DNA of 64,000 bases from Cystobasidiomycetes sp. EMM_F5 (taxonomy: Eukaryota), in assembly GCA_051047955.1 (NCBI GenBank), contig JBPGPT010000011.1:124001-188000 (forward strand), in the 5' to 3' direction. The position numbers were made by a program, and so were the translations under genes. The notes under the pieces are model-generated. The model had not been told where the DNA came from. It did not search any database and worked only from the letters and a program-made list of their open reading frames with translations. Below, in pieces: positions 4,233 to 27,645 of this stretch (positions are counted from its first letter, which is position 1; each line of letters starts with the position of its first letter).

Positions 4233-4550
4233 TAAGAGGTGACGGATGCGGGCAGGCAGTCTTAGTGGTCAGTAGTATTGCCAGTCTGGCGCTCTGCAGC
4301 AGCAGTCTCCACATCCGTATTAGAAATCTACCTACTCGAGAATTTCAGCGTTACCTCGTTGTTGGAAAGACTGCAGCATATGGAATGTGCTCTTTGTGTC
4401 ATGCCAAGAGACATCCGACGTTTCCCAGGCCAAACAGTATGCATATATTTGCCACCGTATTCGCGACCTATGCGTCAGCTTTCTGCCTCTACCAAGTCTG
4501 TAAAATACAAAAGTCCTGAAGTGCCCTCCTCCACTTGGCGTTAGTCGAGG

Positions 4551-7178
4551 ATGAGCTGGCTCTTTGCGGCCCGCGAGCCTGGGCTGCAGACCTTTGACGA
4601 GACTGTCGGTGAGTGCCGGTCAATCCGGTCGAGGAGACCATGCAACAAGTCCACGCAAGAACTGAGCTTACATTCACTATTTGCACGCTGAATCCGCGAT
4701 ATCGCAGACAAGGCAACATCCGAGCTCGTCCCGACGGATAGTGACGAATCGCTACTGCTATCGCTGCAGCTGAGCGACCTGATACGAAGCAAGCAGCTCG
4801 AAGCAGCTACAGCACTGAAGTCTGTGCGACGGCGCTTGGCGCACACGAATCCAAATGTCAAGATACAGAGCCTGCATGTCCTGGATGTGCTAGTCAAGAA
4901 CAGCGGCGAAGCGTTCCTCGTCGCCGTAGCGAATGGAAAGGACGGATGGGCCACGCAGCTAGAGGATACATGTAAGAGTGTACGTGTGTCCCTTGGGCAT
5001 ATGCTGCTCCGCTGCCTGTGCTCCTGCTGACCATGATGCGAAACACGGCCTTTCAATGCATCATCAGTCCAACAATGACCTCCGGCAACTGGCGCTGCAA
5101 TCTCTGCAGAACTGGGCACTGGCCTTTCAGTCTCAGCAAACCTCCAAAGAACTCTCTTCTAGCGACCTAGTAGGTCTATACAATCGACTTCGCTTCAGCC
5201 TCTCCTTTCCACCAGTTTCACAAGCCATGACGAGCAGCATGATAACGTCCATGTCTGCTCCAGAATGGGTCGATGCGGATCTATGTCAGAGATGTAGGAC
5301 GCCATTTACCGTTACAAATCGAAAACACCATTGCAGGAACTGCGGAGGCGTCTTTTGTGGAGAGTGTTCGTCTAAGAAGATGAAGCTGGAGCATCTGGGA
5401 ATAGAGCAGGAAGTGCGCGTATGTGATGGATGTCACAAGAAGCTATCTACACCAGGAGCCAAGAAGACGTACGTGTGCAGTCATCGTGGCTTGCTTCCGG
5501 TATTGGGTTGTCGAACGCTGACGTTTAGAGCTTACTCAGATCCTTCAAGCCACCATCTGATTCTTCTTCTCCCCCGCAGACATCGCGCTCATTGGCTGCT
5601 GTAGGGTCAAATGGCGCCAAGAGTCAGGAGGAAATAGATTTTGAACGGGCCATCGCAATGTCCTTGGCAGAATCCGGTCCTCAACCTGCTACAAACGGTC
5701 AACAGGCTGGTTCAAGCAGTTTGCCAGGTGTCGGATACGGTTACGGAGAACGGCCAGTACAAAGCTCGCCTTATCCGACACTACATCACGCGAAAGCGGC
5801 ACCAGCTGGGCCGTCGAAGCAGCTCGAAGAGGAAGATCCGGATCTAGCGGCCGCCATTCGTGCTTCTCTGGCCGACGTTGCAGCAGCTTCGCCCCCTGTC
5901 GCTTCCTCTTCCTCGACTCCCTACCAGCCTTACCAAGCCAGTGCTCCATATATTCCCCAAGCTCCGACAGCACCGAGCGTGCCGTCATACGAACTCGCAA
6001 TGAGCGAATTTGATGCCCTTGATGCGTTTTCCAATGTCTTACCCGCTCGCCAAGTGTCATTGGACGATGCAAACGAACTCTTCTATCGAGCAGATCGGCA
6101 TCGAGGCAAGATGCTACGAGGTTTGGAAGACAGCCGAGTGAAAGCGGAGATGCTCGATGAGCTGAACGCAAAGCTGCAGAGGGCGGTTAGACTATACGAC
6201 AGCCTCCTCGAGCGCAGATTAAGTTCGTATCGTCATTCGTACCAGCAGCCTCAACAGCAGTACAATCAGCCGTACCAGCAGCCTCGTCAACAATATTACC
6301 AACCGTCACAGCAGGCGCAGCAGAATCCGCATTCGCAATTTCAGCCTGCCAATCAACAAGATGTACAGCGGTACACATCACCTGCGCCTGCTCAACAAGC
6401 ACATACACCCTACAATCCGGTATATGGACTGCAGTATGGGGCGTCCACGTCGTCTCCTGCCCTAGATCAACAGCATACGGGGTATGACTCAGGCGCGCCA
6501 AATTTGCATCGACAGTCCTCGCTTGCTTATGACAATCAGCCTTATTCCAGTGAAGACCCTCAGCAACAGCATCATGATCATATGCATGCGCGCCAACCCG
6601 GATCTGAAGAACGTCAAAACGTCCATGTGCCTCAATATTCTGATGGTGCATACACTCCTCATCCAAGTGTTCCCTATATGTCACCCCCGTTGAACCAAGA
6701 GCCTGCCCTACACCCTGCTGGTGAAGCGGCCGCTCCCCCTTTCCAGCCGCAGCAGGACTTCAACTTTCCGACTTCACCCAGCCGGCAGATCCACGTACCT
6801 CTAGTAGCTGAGCATCAGACGATGGAAGCTGTGCCGATGAGTGACACGCCGCTGTCACAAGGCGCGCCTCATGCTGGTTTCGACGTCAATGCAAATGGCC
6901 ACCGCGATGCTAACGATGTCGTTGCTTACGGTCAACAATCTCAAGCACCAATGCAATTATTGCAACATCAGCGGCCCCCTCAGCAGCTCTTCGACGCTCA
7001 GGGACACAAACTCAAGCTACAAGGCATGTATTCTTCTGCGTCCTTTCCGTCCGTCCCGCAACTTCCAGTGGGCGGTCTACCCAACGCACACAATGGCGAG
7101 CTTACGAATTATAACGAACACAACCATGAAGCGCACGAACCAGTCAAAAAGCAGGAAGAAGCCTTGATCGAATTCTGA
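4551..7178 (+). CDS. VPS27: ESCRT-0 subunit Vps27/Hrs (VHS, FYVE, two UIMs, Q/P-rich tail)
   Basis: VHS DKATSEL..NPNVKIQSLHVLDVLVKNSG; FYVE WVD..CQRC..RKHHCRNCG..C..C..VRVCDGC; UIMs EEIDFERAIAMSLAE and EDPDLAAAIRASLAD; C-terminal ALIEF clathrin box. Confidence 0.95.
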
Positions 7179-21027: not shown

Positions 21028-24000
21028 ATGGCTCTGCATACCTTTGCGCACTCTTCAGCGCCTTTGCGGCGGGTAAAGACGATTCAGTTTGGTATCCTCT
21101 CGCCAGACGAAATCAAGGGTCTCAGCGTCGCAAAGATCGAATACCCAGAGACGTACGAAGAAGGCTCCCAGCGTCCCAAGATTGGTGGTCTGTCCGATAC
21201 ACGCCTCGGAACCATCGACCGAAACTTTCGATGCGAAACCTGCGCCGAGGATATGTCGGAATGTCCTGGGCACTTTGGGCACATCGAGGTGAGAAAGCTT
21301 GCCAGCGACAGCGCTTGAAATGCCTGTTTGTGCCACAAGTGACAATGCTGAGCACTCATACGGCTGTCTGCAGCTTGCACGAGGAGTCTATCATGTCGGC
21401 TTTCTGACCAAAGTCAAGAAGATCCTCGAGAGTATATGTCTCAACTGCGGCAAGCTAAAGGCAGATCCGTACGTGTACCTCGTGTGCAAGTATGAGCATG
21501 TCAAAACTTGACGAGCGTATATCATCCACATCGTACAAATAGGCGTACGGATCCGCGGATAGCAGATGTCATGCGGTATGTCCGCGACCCAAAGAAGCGA
21601 CTCGCCATAGTGCACAGTATTTGCAAGGTAAATGATTTTGAGTTCTAGTGATGACTGAGAACAGGTGAACAATGTTTACCCTGTTTATGCGCCTCTACAC
21701 ATACTACCAGACGGTCCGGGTTTGTCAAACGGACGTGCCAGACGATGACCCTACCCTGGATGAGAATGGTCAACCGATACCGAAGCCGCAGCATGGTGGA
21801 TGTGGTCACGAGCAGCCTGTCATTCGAAAGGAGGGTCTCAAGCTGTTACTCGTCAAGACGCGACAATCAGATGACGACGAAGCGACTGGCGAGAAGCTCA
21901 AGACAGAAGACCGGAAGGCACTGCCTGCGTCTGCTGCAATGCTGATACTTAAAAAGATCCCGGATGAGGATCTACACATCATGGGCCTATCGCTGGACGA
22001 AGCTCGCCCAGAGTGGATGATTTTAACAGTTCTGCCAGTGCCACCACCGGCAGTCAGACCGAGCGTTGCTGTTGATGGTGGAGCGATGAGAAGTCAGGAT
22101 GATCTGACATATAGTGCGTATGGAACCCGCATTACAGCTTGAGCAGCACTGACTAGCTTCATTCCAGAATTGGCCGACATCATCAAGTCCAATCAGAATG
22201 TGCGGCGATTAGAGCAGGAAGGCGCGCCTGCGCACGTCATCGACGAGCATGAGACGCTTCTACAGTATCATATCGCTACTTATATGGATAACGACTTGCC
22301 TGGTCAACCGCAGTCTCTGCAAAAGTCAGGGCGTCCTATAAAATCGATCCGTGCTCGGCTCAAGGGTAAGGAAGGTCGTTTGCGTGGTAACTTGATGGGA
22401 AAGCGCGTAGATTTCTCTGCTCGTACCGTCATTACTGGTGATCCGAATCTGGATCTTGATCAGGTTGGCGTACCACATTCAATAGCTCGCAACCTAACGT
22501 ATCCGGAGCGTGTAACGCCATACAACATCACATATCTCCAAGAGCTCGTGCGTAATGGACCAGACGAGTATCCCGGAGCCCGCTTCATTATCCGTGATAC
22601 CGGCGAGCGGATAAATCTGAAATACAACAAGCGCGCCGACACCTTTTTGCAATACGGCTGGATTGTGGAGAGACACTTGAAAGACGGCGATCTCGTGCTC
22701 TTCAACCGACAACCCTCCCTACACAAAATGTCAATGATGGCTCATCGAGTCAAATTGATGCCCTATTCCACTTTCCGCCTCAACCTTTCCGTAACTCCAC
22801 CATACAATGCTGACTTCGACGGTGACGAAATGAACCTCCACGTGCCTCAGAGCGAGGAAACAAGGGCAGAGCTGTCGCTCATCGCCTGGGTGCCTCGGCA
22901 GATCGTGTCACCGCAGTCGAACAAGCCTGTGATGGGAATTGTGCAAGACACGCTATGCGGTATTCGCAAAATGACACTCCGTGATACATTCATGGACCGG
23001 GACTTTGTGCAAAATCTGCTTCTCTGGGTGCCCGGTTGGGACGGTGTCCTACCGCCGCCAGCGATAATTAAACCAAAAGCATTGTGGACAGGCAAACAGC
23101 TCGTCTCGATGGTAGTGCCGAAAGGAGTAAACTACAATAAGCAGGGTGGCGGTACTCCAGATCCTCTGCAATTGGAAGATGCTAGCGTGATGATCGAAGA
23201 CGGCGAGATTATGTACGGTGTCATCGCTAAGCAGGCTGTCGGTGCGTCCGCGGGCGGTATCGTTCACATCATCTTCCGAGAGCGCGGTCCTGAAGCCTGT
23301 CGTGACTTCATCGGTGGCATCCAGAAAGTAGTCAATTACTGGCTCCTTCACAACGGCTTCTCCATCGGTATCGGTGACACTGTGCCGGATCCAGCGACTC
23401 AACAGAACGTGGTAAATTTCGTTGCTGCAGCGAGAAGGTTGGTTCATGAGACGATCGAGCTCGCGCATATGGACGATTTGGACGCAGAGACCGGTATGAC
23501 AGTTCGAGAGTCTTTTGAGAACACCGTGTTGAACTACCTCAACGATGCCCGTGACAAGGCTGGTAAATCTACGCAGCAATCTTTGAAAGAGGAAAATAAT
23601 GTCAAGCAAATGGTGGTCGCTGGATCCAAGGGTTCCTACATCAATATTGCGCAGATGTCGGCGGTCGTCGGACAACAAAACGTAGAGGGCAAGCGTATCG
23701 CATATGGCTTCAAATATCGCACCTTGCCTCACTATTTGAAAGACGATTATTCACCAGAATCTCGCGGTTTCGTCGAGAACTCGTACTTGCGGGGTCTGAC
23801 TCCTCAAGAATTCTATTTCCATGCTATGGGCGGACGCGAAGGTCTCATTGATACGGCTGTTAAAACTGCAGAGACTGGGTACATCCAGCGTCGTCTCGTC
23901 AAGGCGCTCGAGGATATTACAGTCAGCTACGACGGCACAGTGCGAAACTCGCTTGGCGACATTGTACAATTCGTCTACGGAGAAGATGGCATGGACGGCG

Positions 24001-27000
24001 CAGCTGTGGAAGAGCAGACATTGGAAACTTGCCGAATGTCGGATGATAGGTTCGAGCAGGTGTATCGTGTTGACATGATGGATCCCGACTGGACATTCCG
24101 GAAGGGTACCCTACAGGTCGGTCTAGATGAAGGAACTATCGAAGTACAAGCCCTTCTGGACGAAGAATATCAATCCTTATATGAAGACAGAAAGCTGTTG
24201 CGAGCGGATATCTTTCCTAAGGGTGACTCGACGAAGGTTCTGCCCGTCAATCTATCTCGCATAATCCGTAATGCTCAACAAATCTTCCACATCGACTTTT
24301 CAAAGCCTTCGGATCTTGCTCCTGCAGAGATTGTGGTGGCTGTCCGCGATGTGCTGGATAAACTCATCGTTATTCGAGGCAAGCGGGATGCCTTGACGAC
24401 AGAAGCGCAAGACAACGCCCTTTTACTTTTCAGTATTCTCATGCGGTCGACTTTCGCCACCAAGCGTGTCTTACAGGATTTCCACCTGAACCAGGAGGCT
24501 TTTGCTTGGATCTTAGGCGAAATCGAAACCAGATTCAATCAATCTGTCGCGCATCCAGGCGAAATGTGCGGTGTTATCGCAGCGCAATCTATCGGTGAAC
24601 CAGCCACTCAGATGACCCTAAATACTTTCCATTATGCCGGTGTCGCGTCCAAGAGTGTCACTTTGGGTGTACCGCGATTAAAGGAAATCATCAACGTGGC
24701 GACAAACATCAAGACGCCTTCGTTGACAGTATATCTTGACCCGCGATACAGCAAAGATAAGGTGTCCGCCAAAATCATTCAGTCTCAATTGCCATACACT
24801 ACTCTTAAGACCGTCACGGCAAGCTCCGAAATTTTCTATGATCCTCATGTGAACACAACGCTCATCGAAGATGATCGTGACTTCGTTCATGCGTTCTTCG
24901 AAATCCCTGATCCGGAGGTCGAGCAGAACATGCACCGACAATCGCCGTGGCTGCTTCGTTTCGAACTCAACAAACGAAAGATGGTAGACAAGGATTATGA
25001 TATGGCCTACGTCGCAAGCAAGATACAAGCTGTCTTCGAAGCGGATCTCTTCGTCATTGCGTCGGAAGACTTAGCTGAAAAGCTTGTCATTCGATGCCGT
25101 GCCTTGCAAGAGTCTGACAAGACCGCTGATGAACAAGACGAAGAGAACGCTACACCCGAGGATGTCTTCCTTAAGCAGGTTGAAGGTAGCATGCTGTCTC
25201 AGATCAGCTTGGGCGGTATCGATGGCATCGAGCGTGCCTTTATCGTCGAGCACAAGCGTGACGTGATTGGAGAGAACGGCGAGTTTAACAAAGTCTCAGA
25301 ATGGGTGCTGGAGACGGACGGCATCAACCTTCGCAAAGTGTTGACCGTTGACGGCGTCGATCCCGTTCGCACGACTTCGAACAACTGCGTTGAAATACTG
25401 GAAGTTCTTGGCATTGAGGCAGCTAGGCAGTCTTTGATGCGAGAAATGCGACACGTCATCGAAGCTGGTGGTTCCAGCGTCAATTATCGACACTTGTGCC
25501 TGCTTGTTGATGTGATGACTAACAGAGGTTCCTTGATGGCAGTCACTCGACATGGCATCAATCGAGCAGACACGGGCGCATTGATGAGATGCTCCTTTGA
25601 AGAGACTGTCGAGATTTTGATGGAGGCTGCTTCGATCGGAGAGCGAGATCACTGCACAGGTGTAGCAGAGAATGTTCTGCTCGGACAGCTTGCGCCTATG
25701 GGAACCGGTTCTTTCGACGTGGCACTGGATCTAGACATGCTGAAAGAGGTCGTCATGGATCATCGTCTCCCTACGCAGAATATGGTGGCAGCAGATGGGT
25801 CAATGACACCGGGCGGTAGTATGACTCCGTATGCAGAAATGGACGGCCACGGCGGCAGGACGCCTGGTGGCATGAACTACGACAATTTGGCACTCAATGC
25901 GCAATTCTCGCCGATCGTACAGTCCGGTGCCGAAGAGGGCGTCGGCAATATGTACGGTGGCTACGGGGCGAGTCCGTACACACCTCGAGGCGCTGGAGCA
26001 ATGAGTCCTGGCGGGTATGGAATGTCGCCCGGAGGCCAATCCCCAAGCGGCTGGTCACCTTCCTCTCCTGCGTTCTTCGCACCATCAGGTAGTCCAGGTT
26101 ACATTTCATCACCCTTCGCTTCGCAGTACAGCCCTACCTCTCCACGCATTCATATGTCGCAATCGCAGACATCGCCTGCATCACCGTCTTACGCGTCGCC
26201 GTCATTCGCATCGCCTAGCTTCTCGCCGGCGGCGGGATCGCCTGCCTCGCCACGTTTCAGTCCTCAGAGTCCAAATTACGCAAGTCCGCAGAGCCCAAAT
26301 TTCGTTTCGAGCCCGCGCTACTCGCCTCTAAGCCCGAACTTCGTGTCAAGTCCAAAATACAGTCCCTCCGCCACCTCTCCCGTCTATCATAGCCAATCTG
26401 CCTCAAGCCCGCAGTTCAGTGCGTTCCAAAGTTGTACCCGAGTGAGAGAAGAGATAGACTGACATATCTCGTACTTTGCCTCATCGTCGGATCACGTTTC
26501 TACTCTATTTTTTTCGTCTTTCGCGCTTTCACCTTTTCTCTTTCCTCCATCGGCATTCTCTCTTCGGCTCATCTCGTCCATCTTCTCTCATCTCTTCCTT
26601 TCGCTCTTCTCATCCCTGTGTGCTCTTCTATTTATATCTGATGTCCTTTTACTGCTGTTCGCTCGGTTAAAATTTTCATCTCGCACTATAATCTGCGCGA
26701 CATTCCCACACGTCAAACCCACACGACAAACCCACATGACAAACCCACACGACAAACATACAATACAACCTGTCTGCCAAAAACGCACTCTTGCGCCTTC
26801 TCCTCTACCTCGCTTCTTGTTTTTGTGGTACTTCTCTCGTCCCCAGCACCAACTTCCCCCAAATACAGTCCTCGCAGCGTAGCGTACAGTCCCACAAGCC
26901 CGCAGATGAGTCCAGGGAATGCGAGCCCAGCGTACAGCATCACTAGTCCTCAATTCAACTCTCAATACTCACCCGCGTACTCACCCCGACTCAATCAAGG

Positions 27001-27016
27001 CTATGGTCGTCAGTGA
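21028..27016 (+). CDS. RPB1: RNA polymerase II largest subunit
   Basis: [40 protein letters not shown], catalytic [24 protein letters not shown] and an S/P/Y-rich CTD. The last CTD exon (26847-27016) joins in frame after the long intron; extreme 3' end uncertain. Confidence 0.98.
26419..26846 (+). other. 428-nt RPB1 CTD intron with a distant branch point and an AG-exclusion zone
   Basis: Donor GTGCGT at 26419, ACTGAC at 26458-26463, no AG dinucleotide in 26458-26844, acceptor CCCCAG ending 26846. Splicing gives ..[15 protein letters not shown].. in frame. Confidence 0.85.
26705..26756 (+). repeat. Tandem repeat, 13 bp x4 (CCCACACGACAAA)
   Basis: cccacacgtcaaa cccacacgacaaa cccacatgacaaa cccacacgacaaa, followed by a degenerate copy catacaatacaac. 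Confidence 0.9.
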
Positions 27017-27645
27017 GGATGCTGATCGCGTCATTCAGCACCCCAGAAGAGCTGCATTTCAGTATACGTCGGCGAACGACCCGGGAGTGAGGACAAACGA
27101 CCAAAGCATGGGCAAACGACCTGAATTGGCAGACTAACAGCCCTGGTACGTGTGCGTTAGGCTTATATATGCTCAAGTGCGGGTTTCAGCCGTGTATCTC
27201 TCGACTTCTATCGATATTTGTGAGTTCGTGTCGAGGAAGTCCGAGTCAGACAATCAGGTTGATATGAATCGATAATTATGTACTTTAGTTGTACGCGCTG
27301 GCAAGCGCTTGCAGACTCAGTCAGACCTGCTAATTGGAACAAACATACTCCCGTAAACTTTTGTGCATCTGTCAACAGGGAAGCAAGGAATTCAGCTGAG
27401 TATTGATCTTAAGCACCAGAAGGGCTGTCAAAGCGGGCTATCGTTGTTGTATGTTGGATGTAGTGGTAACGAGAGTGTTTATCACGACTGCAATTACGTG
27501 CAATGCGTGTTTGCGAGGGAAGCTCCCAATATTCGTTGATATGTACCTGGTCGTCTGCCCCCTTGAACGTCAGACTTGCACCAAGTGCCAAACACTGCTC
27601 CAACACCATGCGGTAGCCTTGATACAACTTTGCAATACTGCGTCT

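Follow-up and report, generated by a model that had tools for sequence, protein, structure and literature searches.

In a Pucciniomycotina-like basidiomycete, the CTD-coding end of RPB1, a gene located in the 64-kb stretch of DNA analyzed here (hereafter, the window), is split by a 428-nt intron that is a genuine U2-type GT-AG spliceosomal intron. Downstream of a consensus branch motif the intron is free of AG dinucleotides all the way to its acceptor. The explanation that we consider probable is a distant-branch-point intron with an AG exclusion zone, expanded from a short intron and having no regulatory role. Three of its components are what we infer from the comparisons described below: which adenine serves as the branch, that the intron arose by expansion, and that it does not regulate the gene.

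RPB1 gene model and intron boundaries

The 3' part of the gene is organized as follows:

22168..26418, plus strand: large RPB1 exon, within an ORF at 22143-26462; it ends in degenerate CTD sequence (...SSPQF) and base 1 of a split Thr codon
26419-26424, plus strand: 5' splice site GTGCGT, a hexamer shared with RPB1 intron 4 (at 22114)
26845..26846, plus strand: 3' splice site AG (CCCCAG, 26841-26846), the first AG past 26456 and the one joined in a contig of public run X1
26847..27016, plus strand: terminal RPB1 exon, encoding a 56-aa CTD tail (...GYGRQ), with the stop codon at 27014-27016; supported by frame, homology and the X1 contig, which extends up to 27020

With five introns, the RPB1 model is open throughout and encodes 1754 aa with zero internal stops. 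The resulting protein is 20 aa shorter than protein P0004 (1774 aa) and identical to it in 1372 of 1789 alignment columns. The large exon is 76.5% identical to P0004 residues 147-1706, and the terminal exon is 52% identical to residues 1706-1753 (tblastn). The terminal exon is also similar to the C-terminal tails encoded by two other fungal RPB1 loci, L001 and L002. The intron is in phase 1, and splicing keeps the frame open into the 56-aa tail; the sequence-only reading had anticipated a gain of about 55 aa of CTD and is borne out in this respect.

The 26418|26847 junction, also predicted from the sequence, is present as an exact joint in a single 315-nt contig of run X1 (depth 3.5). This contig spans 26278-26418 and 26847-27020, differs from the window by 6 mismatches in 315 nt and omits precisely the 428 nt with GT..AG ends, so that the joint is unambiguous. 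Run X1 consists of assembled contigs whose RNA nature is our guess, and it alone matched among three examined runs of one study. It covers 0.21 of the window, and no X1 contig extends across the intron or the four 5' RPB1 introns. The contig could in principle represent an intron-less allele of a near strain, which would mark the same intron boundaries even so. Thus, the GT and AG ends with a genome-like donor, the junction in a contig presumed to be RNA-derived and a homologous frame on both sides are all those of a U2-type GT-AG intron.

The unspliced reading frame is terminated by an in-frame TGA at 26460-26462, inside the ACTGAC motif. One could argue that there is no intron at all, that the gene stops at this TGA and leaves a defunct CTD-like ORF downstream, just as implied by P0001, a 1430-aa entry of a public protein collection that results from a prokaryote-style gene call and ends at the same TGA. 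However, this view is contradicted by the exact GT..AG joint in the X1 contig and by a tail exon that is open, in frame and homologous to the C-terminal tails of relatives; we consider it almost certainly wrong. Because ORF-based gene calls such as P0001 truncate Rpb1 at the TGA in the branch motif, the last 56 CTD residues are missed in annotation.

AG-free tract and candidate branch sites

Between its splice sites the intron contains these elements:

26441..26457, plus strand: purine-rich stretch with 6 AG in 17 nt, directly upstream of the branch motif
26458..26463, plus strand: branch consensus ACTGAC with candidate branch A26462, 39 nt past the donor and 384 nt from the 3' splice site
26464..26700, plus strand: first pyrimidine-rich part, with 30 A and 29 G; 3.7 AG expected, 0 observed
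26638..26642, plus strand: second consensus pentamer, CTGAT, with candidate A26641, 205 nt from the 3' splice site
26705..26757, plus strand: A/C-rich tandem repeat of a 13-nt unit, CCCACACGACAAA, in 4.1 copies with 92% matches (Tandem Repeats Finder)
26771..26844, plus strand: second pyrimidine-rich tract, adjoining the acceptor, with no consensus branch motif and with As at 26779-83, 26787, 26807 and 26830

AG dinucleotides start at 26430, 26441, 26445, 26447, 26450, 26452 and 26456, and the next one starts at 26845. In other words, 7 AG within 27 nt before ACTGAC are followed by none within 387 nt after it. The AG-free bases number 387 (26458-26844), corresponding to a 389-nt gap between AG starts. 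The positions originally assigned to GTGCGT (26419), ACTGAC (26458-63) and CCCCAG (26846), as well as the length of the AG-free run, proved exact. The 389-nt gap is the maximum across the two strands of the 64-kb window, with runners-up of 178 nt (minus) and 149 nt (plus). Nine other gaps of at least 110 nt, either AG-free or CT-free, occur in the window, and none resembles the arrangement of donor, branch and tract. The modular character ascribed to the tract from its letters, U/C-rich, then an A/C-rich repeat, then U/C-rich again, is confirmed by the tandem repeat and by pyrimidine content per 60 nt: 77-83% at 26479-26658, A/C-rich sequence at 26659-26778 and 73% at 26779-26838.

How unusual is the absence of AG? 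Given the composition of the tract (T138, C130, A69, G44), 7.9 AG are predicted, and the probability of observing none is about 3.5e-4. Shuffling in blocks of 20, 40, 60 and 381 nt produced zero-AG sequences in 2, 0, 4 and 1 of 20,000 trials, respectively, with 7.3-8.0 AG expected, and the mirror dinucleotide GA occurs 6 times in the tract. AG depletion beyond base composition therefore holds at 0-4 per 20,000 shuffles, whereas the probability near 1e-11 initially attached to it presupposes uniform composition and does not. The shuffles treat positions as independent, whereas the tract is repeat-derived (the 13-nt repeat and TCATC-like motifs), and the real probability is therefore less extreme than they indicate. 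The seed motifs may themselves have lacked AG, which would account for some of the depletion. A single base change could create an AG in the tract by any of 113 routes (AA 18, GG 5, AC 28, AT 23, CG 23 and TG 16). We also applied a model-free count of the longest AG gap to 80 fungal RPB1 3' loci (463 kb), in which coding-strand runs without AG reached at most 181 nt. At 387 nt, beyond the expectation from composition and beyond this maximum, the tract has the length and depletion that characterize an AG exclusion zone.

Candidate branch sites were sought with CTRAY and with 22 distinct branch pentamers from the S. pombe list, as given in the accessible text of PMC9508853. Only two matches, CTGAC and CTGAT, are found in the 428 nt, and there are none in the last 200 nt. 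The first, within ACTGAC, lies at the upstream edge of the AG-free zone, which begins 2 nt upstream of it, and is followed by sequence that is 77-83% pyrimidine. RPB1 intron 4 has the same ACTGAC, as does each of the four CTD introns of L063, the basidiomycete RPB1 locus that is the nearest genomic relative. Judging from these motifs, a branch far upstream of the acceptor is most likely, with A26462 as the preferred candidate and A26641 as the second choice. As just 1.9 AG are expected at 26464-26640, between the two candidates, AG depletion favors A26462 over A26641 only by about 7:1. With regard to the other end of the intron, the strong pyrimidine tract at 26790-26841 adjoins the acceptor and could support a non-consensus A26807 or A26830, which speaks against a distant branch.

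Other introns of the window provide the local norm. The four homology-supported RPB1 introns are 85, 74, 83 and 54 nt long, and their branch-like motifs are 22, 31, 52 and 15 nt from the acceptors. A further 26 candidates, heuristic and unverified, measure 42-146 nt; they were hand-picked (no longer than 150 nt, the shortest among overlapping alternatives) from a noisy relaxed ORF-based set of 48. The range of about 45-130 nt proposed earlier for the other introns is thus only partially checked by these two sets. When the 26 hand-picked candidates were combined with three RPB1 introns, CTRA[C/T/G] was present in 18 of the 29, and in 14 of these 18 it lay no more than 30 nt from the acceptor, with the reservation that 26 of the 29 are heuristic and unverified.

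Distant versus near-acceptor branch point

Past the branch, the spliceosome normally takes the first AG that it can use. If A26462 or A26641 is the branch, a new AG within the tract would be a premature, frame-breaking acceptor and would be purged by selection. The tract would then stay AG-free because of selection against AGs usable as premature acceptors, while the tract itself would probably have no sequence-specific role. Its ancestor may have been a short intron consisting of a donor, about 35 nt, ACTGAC, a T-run and an AG, in which the pyrimidine tract between branch and acceptor grew by slippage and tandem duplication.

Support for such an origin comes from the 13-nt tandem repeat with its 4.1 copies and from a short intron near the same site in L063. 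The last CTD intron of L063 (4847-4927) is 81 nt long and occupies a nearly equivalent position, about 60 codons from the stop vs 56 for the intron studied here. It contains ACTGAC followed by a T run, with AG 32 nt past the branch A. Both introns split a codon just before PTSP and share ACTGAC plus a pyrimidine run. They differ in that the L063 intron is in phase 2, has a GC donor and a branch-acceptor distance of 32 nt, whereas the window's intron is in phase 1, has a GT donor and is 428 nt long. Sequences from L002 (79% identical) and L001 (66%) have an uninterrupted CTD, but these contigs are intron-free and probably transcripts; they are therefore uninformative on whether the intron exists in their own genomes.

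Is it possible instead that this is an ordinary long intron with a non-consensus branch near the acceptor, either A26807 in CTCTACC or A26830 in TGGTACT, and that ACTGAC is a chance match? The pyrimidine tract would then drive recognition, and AG would be absent simply as a consequence of low-G, pyrimidine-rich, repeat-derived sequence, without selection. A number of observations fit this idea. The last 74 nt, adjoining the AG, are about 73% pyrimidine; 11 of the 29 candidate short introns (26 of them unverified) lack CTRA[C/T/G], and RPB1 intron 2 has TTGAC; tandem and quasi-repeats make tract positions non-independent; and distances above 30 nt are disfavored in the S. pombe reporters described in the available text of PMC9508853. 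On the other hand, neither CTRAY nor any of the 22 pentamers is found in the last 200 nt, and a branch near the acceptor leaves 26464-26770 unconstrained, where about 5.4 AG are expected and 0 observed, against 6 GA in the tract. It also does not account for an AG-free zone that starts 2 nt before a perfect ACTGAC, right after 7 AG in 27 nt. Moreover, given 113 single-base routes to AG and about 8% divergence among the repeat copies, we would expect some AG to have arisen in a neutral tract. On balance, we regard a near-acceptor branch as unlikely.

The distant-branch explanation has counterparts in other eukaryotes. AG dinucleotide exclusion zones have been described for human exons whose branch points are distant (Gooding et al. 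2006, PMC1431707, as represented in its accessible text). Like them, the intron studied here has a branch consensus followed by a pyrimidine-rich tract and a long AG-free zone up to the acceptor, and the logic of using the first AG is shared. Unlike them, it is fungal, its branch is a candidate, it lies among introns of 42-146 nt and its 387-nt zone makes up about 90% of the intron. In budding yeasts, maximum branch-acceptor distances of 166 nt in S. cerevisiae, 471 nt in C. glabrata and 185 nt in K. lactis have been given (Gahura et al. 2011, PMC3239191, in the portion available). The S. cerevisiae COF1 and UBC13 introns (PMC3239191, same portion) resemble the present case in being fungal and in having a branch-acceptor distance far above the norm. 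However, introns of the COF1/UBC13 type have a stable stem that shortens the distance and masks AGs, whereas the present spacer lacks AGs that would need masking and its predicted fold does not outperform shuffles. In S. pombe reporters, spacings of at least 30 nt are already poorly spliced according to the accessible text of PMC9508853. Unless folding brings the two sites closer together, 205-384 nt would be an extreme spacing for a fungal intron, a point against a distant branch.

RNA structure prediction was carried out for both the whole intron and its branch-to-acceptor part. The whole intron showed no special fold (z = -1.78 vs shuffles); its MFE structure pairs the purine-rich 26441-26457 with the CU-rich tract near 26584-26606. 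For the branch-to-acceptor part, the predicted MFE is -39.4 kcal/mol vs a shuffle mean of -43.0, with 75 of 100 shuffles at least as stable. Branch and acceptor are predicted to lie at a graph distance of 25, where shuffles average 41; in 32 of 100 shuffles the distance is no longer than this. A structure-bridged intron of the COF1/UBC13 type is not supported by these predictions.

Other possible identities of the tract were considered as well. A mobile or repeated element was discarded, as the only blastn match of the intron in the window was to itself and the 80 RPB1 loci gave none. Decayed CTD coding sequence was likewise dismissed: the three forward frames have no heptad-like remnants, and Rpb1 is only 20 aa below P0004. 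An Rfam search of the intron (E <= 1) gave one chance-level match on the minus strand, Six3os1_3, at 13.8 bits vs a gathering score of 40, and visual inspection of the intron revealed no box C/D pair.

Possible autoregulation and significance of the intron

The sequence-only reading had gone further and proposed an element by which Pol II regulates itself. According to this idea, exon ligation is delayed and becomes conditional because the AG lies so far from the branch, much as happens in fission-yeast TER1 or during spliceosome-mediated decay. The amount of full-length RPB1 mRNA, and thereby Pol II abundance or CTD length, would be set by how fast Pol II moves, by termination or by a protein that binds the tract. 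Several features make it attractive. A consensus branch with a very long branch-AG distance is the kind of arrangement that slows progression from the first to the second splicing step in S. pombe TER1 (PMC4299874, in its accessible part), and longer spacing weakens splicing and confers dependence on Sde2/Cactin/Tls1 in S. pombe (PMC9508853, likewise). In addition, the host gene encodes Pol II itself. Since the unspliced frame ends at the TGA within the branch motif, intron retention would yield either a PTC-bearing mRNA or an Rpb1 without the last 56 aa.

The evidence against it is broader. The sole transcript-like evidence, the X1 contig, is the fully spliced form, and no significant fold was detected. 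No conservation of the element was seen in the loci compared, and, as far as these data reach, this is one of the outcomes that the sequence-only reading had itself named as refuting it: a long AG-free CTD intron shared among fungal RPB1 genes, as an autoregulatory element would lead one to expect, failed to appear in the 80 loci, where the AG-free maximum is 181 nt, the near-equivalent site of L063 has an 81-nt intron and the closest relatives are represented only by transcript-like contigs. The tract derives from repeats and is of low complexity; neither the rest of the window nor the 80 loci contain another copy, and no Rfam match came near a gathering score. TER1 needs a full U2 complement, for which UACUAAC is the comparison motif, and the branch sequence GACTGAC is not one. 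Within the literature accessible to our search for fungal RPB1 CTD intron-retention autoregulation and basidiomycete distant branch points, no such circuit was found. Consequently, the structural part of the sequence-only reading (intron, junction, distant motifs and AG depletion) is supported, while its autoregulatory part has no support, and we consider conditional exon ligation very unlikely.

The resemblance to S. pombe is also limited in scale and outcome. As far as the available texts of PMC4299874 and PMC9508853 go, longer spacing slows or weakens the second step in TER1 and in the Sde2/Cactin/Tls1-dependent introns, a feature that the present intron may share. Yet in TER1 and other branchpoint-distant S. 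pombe introns, according to the same texts, the distances are about 20-40 nt, whereas here they would be in the hundreds. Furthermore, TER1 releases its 5' exon as a functional product (same texts), whereas the X1 contig contains the ligated product and the exon after the intron encodes conserved protein sequence.

A more specific version, in which a second-step-limited intron serves as a sensor in the Pol II gene and thereby influences how much Rpb1 is made or whether the last 56 CTD residues are present, has in our view an even slimmer chance of being correct. Equally slim is the chance of the timing it implies: branching at A26462 would occur once the first 45 nt are transcribed, and ligation would wait for about 385 more nt and the distant AG. 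The same low expectation applies to its final step, in which the share of transcripts ligated rather than discarded or retained (with the stop at the TGA) would depend on Pol II elongation or termination. Autoregulation, which is still hypothetical, would if true matter much more than a distant branch point.

We return to the distant-branch-point intron with an AG exclusion zone as the preferred explanation. No basidiomycete case of an unstructured AG-free distant-branch intron was found in the accessible literature searched. If the branch is truly 205-384 nt from the acceptor, the RPB1 intron would be a clear natural fungal example of a 'human-type' distant branch point with an unstructured AG-free spacer, in contrast to the stem-bridged distant branch points of budding yeasts. 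It would also offer a natural substrate for studying how far the fungal spliceosome can reach to a 3' splice site, and would show selection policing a growing branch-to-acceptor spacer.

RPB1 and its last intron

The window carries a basidiomycete RPB1, the gene for the largest subunit of RNA polymerase II. Its nearest public proteins show 64–67% identity over the region queried, and the nearest named ones, from Puccinia, Melampsora and Microbotryomycetes, 48–58%. We built the gene model by tblastn with P0004, the Rpb1 protein of a relative (1774 aa), combined with direct reading of the sequence. The resulting CDS (21028–27016) has five introns and encodes 1754 aa with 0 internal stops; the alignment of the modelled protein with P0004 has 1789 columns, of which 1372 are identical.

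Introns of the RPB1 model
21289–21373, + strand, intron 1, 85 nt
21469–21542, + strand, intron 2, 74 nt
21628–21710, + strand, intron 3, 83 nt
22114–22167, + strand, intron 4, 54 nt
26419–26846, + strand, intron 5 (the intron under study), 428 nt

Intron 5 is genuine, as proposed from the sequence alone. A 315-nt contig of the public sequencing run X1 covers 26278–26418 and then 26847–27020, skipping 428 nt with GT..AG ends at an unambiguous joint. Its six mismatches to the window show that its source is a near but different strain. X1 is stored as assembled contigs and is only guessed to be RNA; were it DNA, the contig would represent an intron-less allele and would mark the same intron boundaries. 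Independent support comes from homology of the tail exon (56 aa), which aligns with P0004 residues 1706–1753 at 52% identity and resembles the C-terminal tails encoded in L001 and L002, contigs of two relatives. Without splicing, the reading frame meets its stop 14 codons past the donor, at the TGA within ACTGAC. It is there that P0001, a prokaryote-style ORF call (22143–26462, 1430 aa) and the sole form of this gene in the public protein collection, stops; since it also begins at an internal Met, both protein ends are missing. ORF-based calls thus cut this Rpb1 short.

The CTD (coding region 25990–27016) is more degenerate than those of relatives, and YSPTSPS-like canonical heptads are few. 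For P0001, which lacks the tail exon, the CTD-repeat family PF05001 is absent from the precomputed Pfam list; 10 of the 11 next matches carry it. Two of the best-preserved heptads, one of them YSPTSPQ, are encoded downstream of the long intron, in the tail exon.

The AG-free tract and the candidate branch sites

The motifs noted in the sequence-only reading are exactly placed: GTGCGT at 26419, ACTGAC at 26458–26463 and CCCCAG with its last base at 26846. The AGs of the intron begin at 26430, 26441, 26445, 26447, 26450, 26452 and 26456, and next only at 26845. This start-to-start gap of 389 nt is the longest on both strands of the 64 kb, the runners-up being 178 and 149. The AG-free zone opens 2 nt upstream of ACTGAC, immediately following 27 purine-rich nt that contain seven AGs. 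Given the tract composition (T138, C130, A69, G44), 7.9 AGs would be expected, and the mirror dinucleotide GA is present six times. The probability of 1e-11 originally attached to the gap presumes uniform composition; the depletion itself is real, at roughly 1e-4, as composition-preserving shuffles in blocks of 20, 40, 60 and 381 nt gave AG-free outcomes in 2, 0, 4 and 1 of 20,000 trials each. Part of the tract derives from repeats (4.1 copies of a 13-nt unit at 26705–26757, plus recurring TCATC-like motifs); positions within it thus depend on one another, which makes the true probability less extreme than this estimate.

A search of the 428 nt for CTRAY and the 22 distinct branch pentamers of an S. 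pombe list (PMC9508853) returned only two matches, CTGAC (A26462, 384 nt from the acceptor) and CTGAT (A26641, 205 nt), and none in the last 200 nt. The homology-supported introns 1–4 have the branch-like motifs CTGAG, TTGAC, CTGAG and CTGAC at 22, 31, 52 and 15 nt from their acceptors, intron 4 sharing both the GTGCGT donor and the ACTGAC branch motif with intron 5. Of 29 short introns in a rough candidate set, 26 of them heuristic and unverified, 18 contain CTRA[C/T/G], at most 30 nt from the acceptor in 14 of the 18. Towards the acceptor of intron 5, where no consensus branch occurs, the only As are at 26767–26768, 26779–26783, 26787, 26807 and 26830. A branch near the acceptor would leave about 5.4 expected AGs of 26464–26770 unexplained. 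The first usable AG past the branch becomes the acceptor, so that a distant branch would account for the long AG-free tract. Judging from sequence, we therefore favour a branch at least 205 nt from the acceptor, with A26462 as first choice among the candidate sites; AG depletion separates it poorly from A26641, since only 1.9 AGs are expected between them. The reading of an intron with a proximal branch motif and an AG exclusion zone is supported by sequence statistics and the observed junction, while branch usage is what we infer.

In intron 3, the only branch-like motif is ACTGAG (A21658), 52 nt from the acceptor, and the interval is AG-free except for one AG 5 nt past the motif. The CTD intron may thus not be the only one in this organism whose branch lies moderately far from its acceptor.

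Fold predictions gave no sign, relative to shuffles, of a budding-yeast style stem bridging branch and acceptor. The whole intron has z = -1.78 (5 of 100 shuffles fold as well), the branch-to-acceptor part is matched or exceeded by 75 of 100 shuffles, and the predicted branch–acceptor distance through structure, 25 steps, is equalled or bettered by 32 of 100. As far as these predictions go, no special structure is encoded between branch and acceptor. Since the two ends of any long RNA tend to approach each other, branch and acceptor may still be effectively much closer than 384 nt. In the minimum free energy fold, itself not significant as a whole, GA-rich 26441–26457, just upstream of ACTGAC, is predicted to pair with CU-rich ~26584–26606 in a helix of ~17 bp. 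An Rfam search of the intron found no family (top score 13.8 bits, gathering score 40), no copies of the tract were found elsewhere in the window or in 80 related loci, and its three forward frames hold no heptad remnants.

Comparison with relatives and a possible origin

The 80 loci come from metagenomes and encode proteins related to the C-terminal part of RPB1. L002 (79% identity) and L001 (66%) are the closest, and in both the CTD runs uninterrupted to the stop; they look like transcripts and are therefore uninformative on intron structure. In L063, the nearest clearly genomic relative, four short introns split the CTD, all of them with ACTGAC and then a T run. The last (4847–4927) is 81 nt long, has its acceptor 32 nt past the branch A, and splits a codon just before PTSP, ~60 codons ahead of the stop; the window intron also splits the codon before PTSP, 56 codons ahead of the stop and one base sooner within the codon.

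Read by eye, each of the four L063 introns (4402–4927) lies between the second and third bases of a Ser codon, just before (P)TSP, and has a T run of 10–15 after ACTGAC; three apparently have GC donors (GCAAGC, GCAAGT, GCACGT). The four resemble repeated copies of a single heptad unit that carries an intron.

The sequence-only reading had proposed intron 5 as a candidate element by which Pol II could regulate itself. This idea is unsupported and fails the comparative test: the longest AG-free run on the coding strand of the 80 loci (463 kb) is 181 nt, the per-locus maxima have a median of 117, and the L063 counterpart is short. We consider such autoregulation very improbable. With the closest relatives known only as transcript-like contigs, the comparison fits an expanded short intron rather than a conserved regulatory element. 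An ancestral short intron would have occupied the site, its branch-to-acceptor pyrimidine tract may have expanded in the window's lineage, and AG-creating variants in the growing tract would have been removed.

Known parallels

AG exclusion zones are described together with distant branch points for human exons (PMC1431707), and maximum branch-to-acceptor distances are reported to reach 166 nt in S. cerevisiae, 471 in C. glabrata and 185 in K. lactis (PMC3239191). Budding yeasts bridge such distances with stems that also hide intervening AGs (PMC3239191), whereas the predicted spacer fold of the window intron is unremarkable. In S. pombe, spacings of at least 30 nt are reported for ~40 of ~5250 introns, with weakened splicing and a need for Sde2, Cactin and Tls1 (PMC9508853). 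The statement of the sequence-only reading that a long spacing uncouples the splicing steps in fission-yeast telomerase RNA was correct: release of the TER1 5′ exon is driven by a long branch-to-acceptor distance and a fully U2-complementary branch site (PMC4299874). Literature listings on RPB1 splicing autoregulation in fungi and on distant branch points in basidiomycetes contained no paper on such an intron or on RPB1 splicing feedback. The architecture has known counterparts, and the novelty lies in its setting: the RPB1 gene of a basidiomycete whose introns are otherwise short, with an unstructured spacer. The intron is a good natural substrate for testing the reach of the fungal spliceosome to the 3′ splice site.
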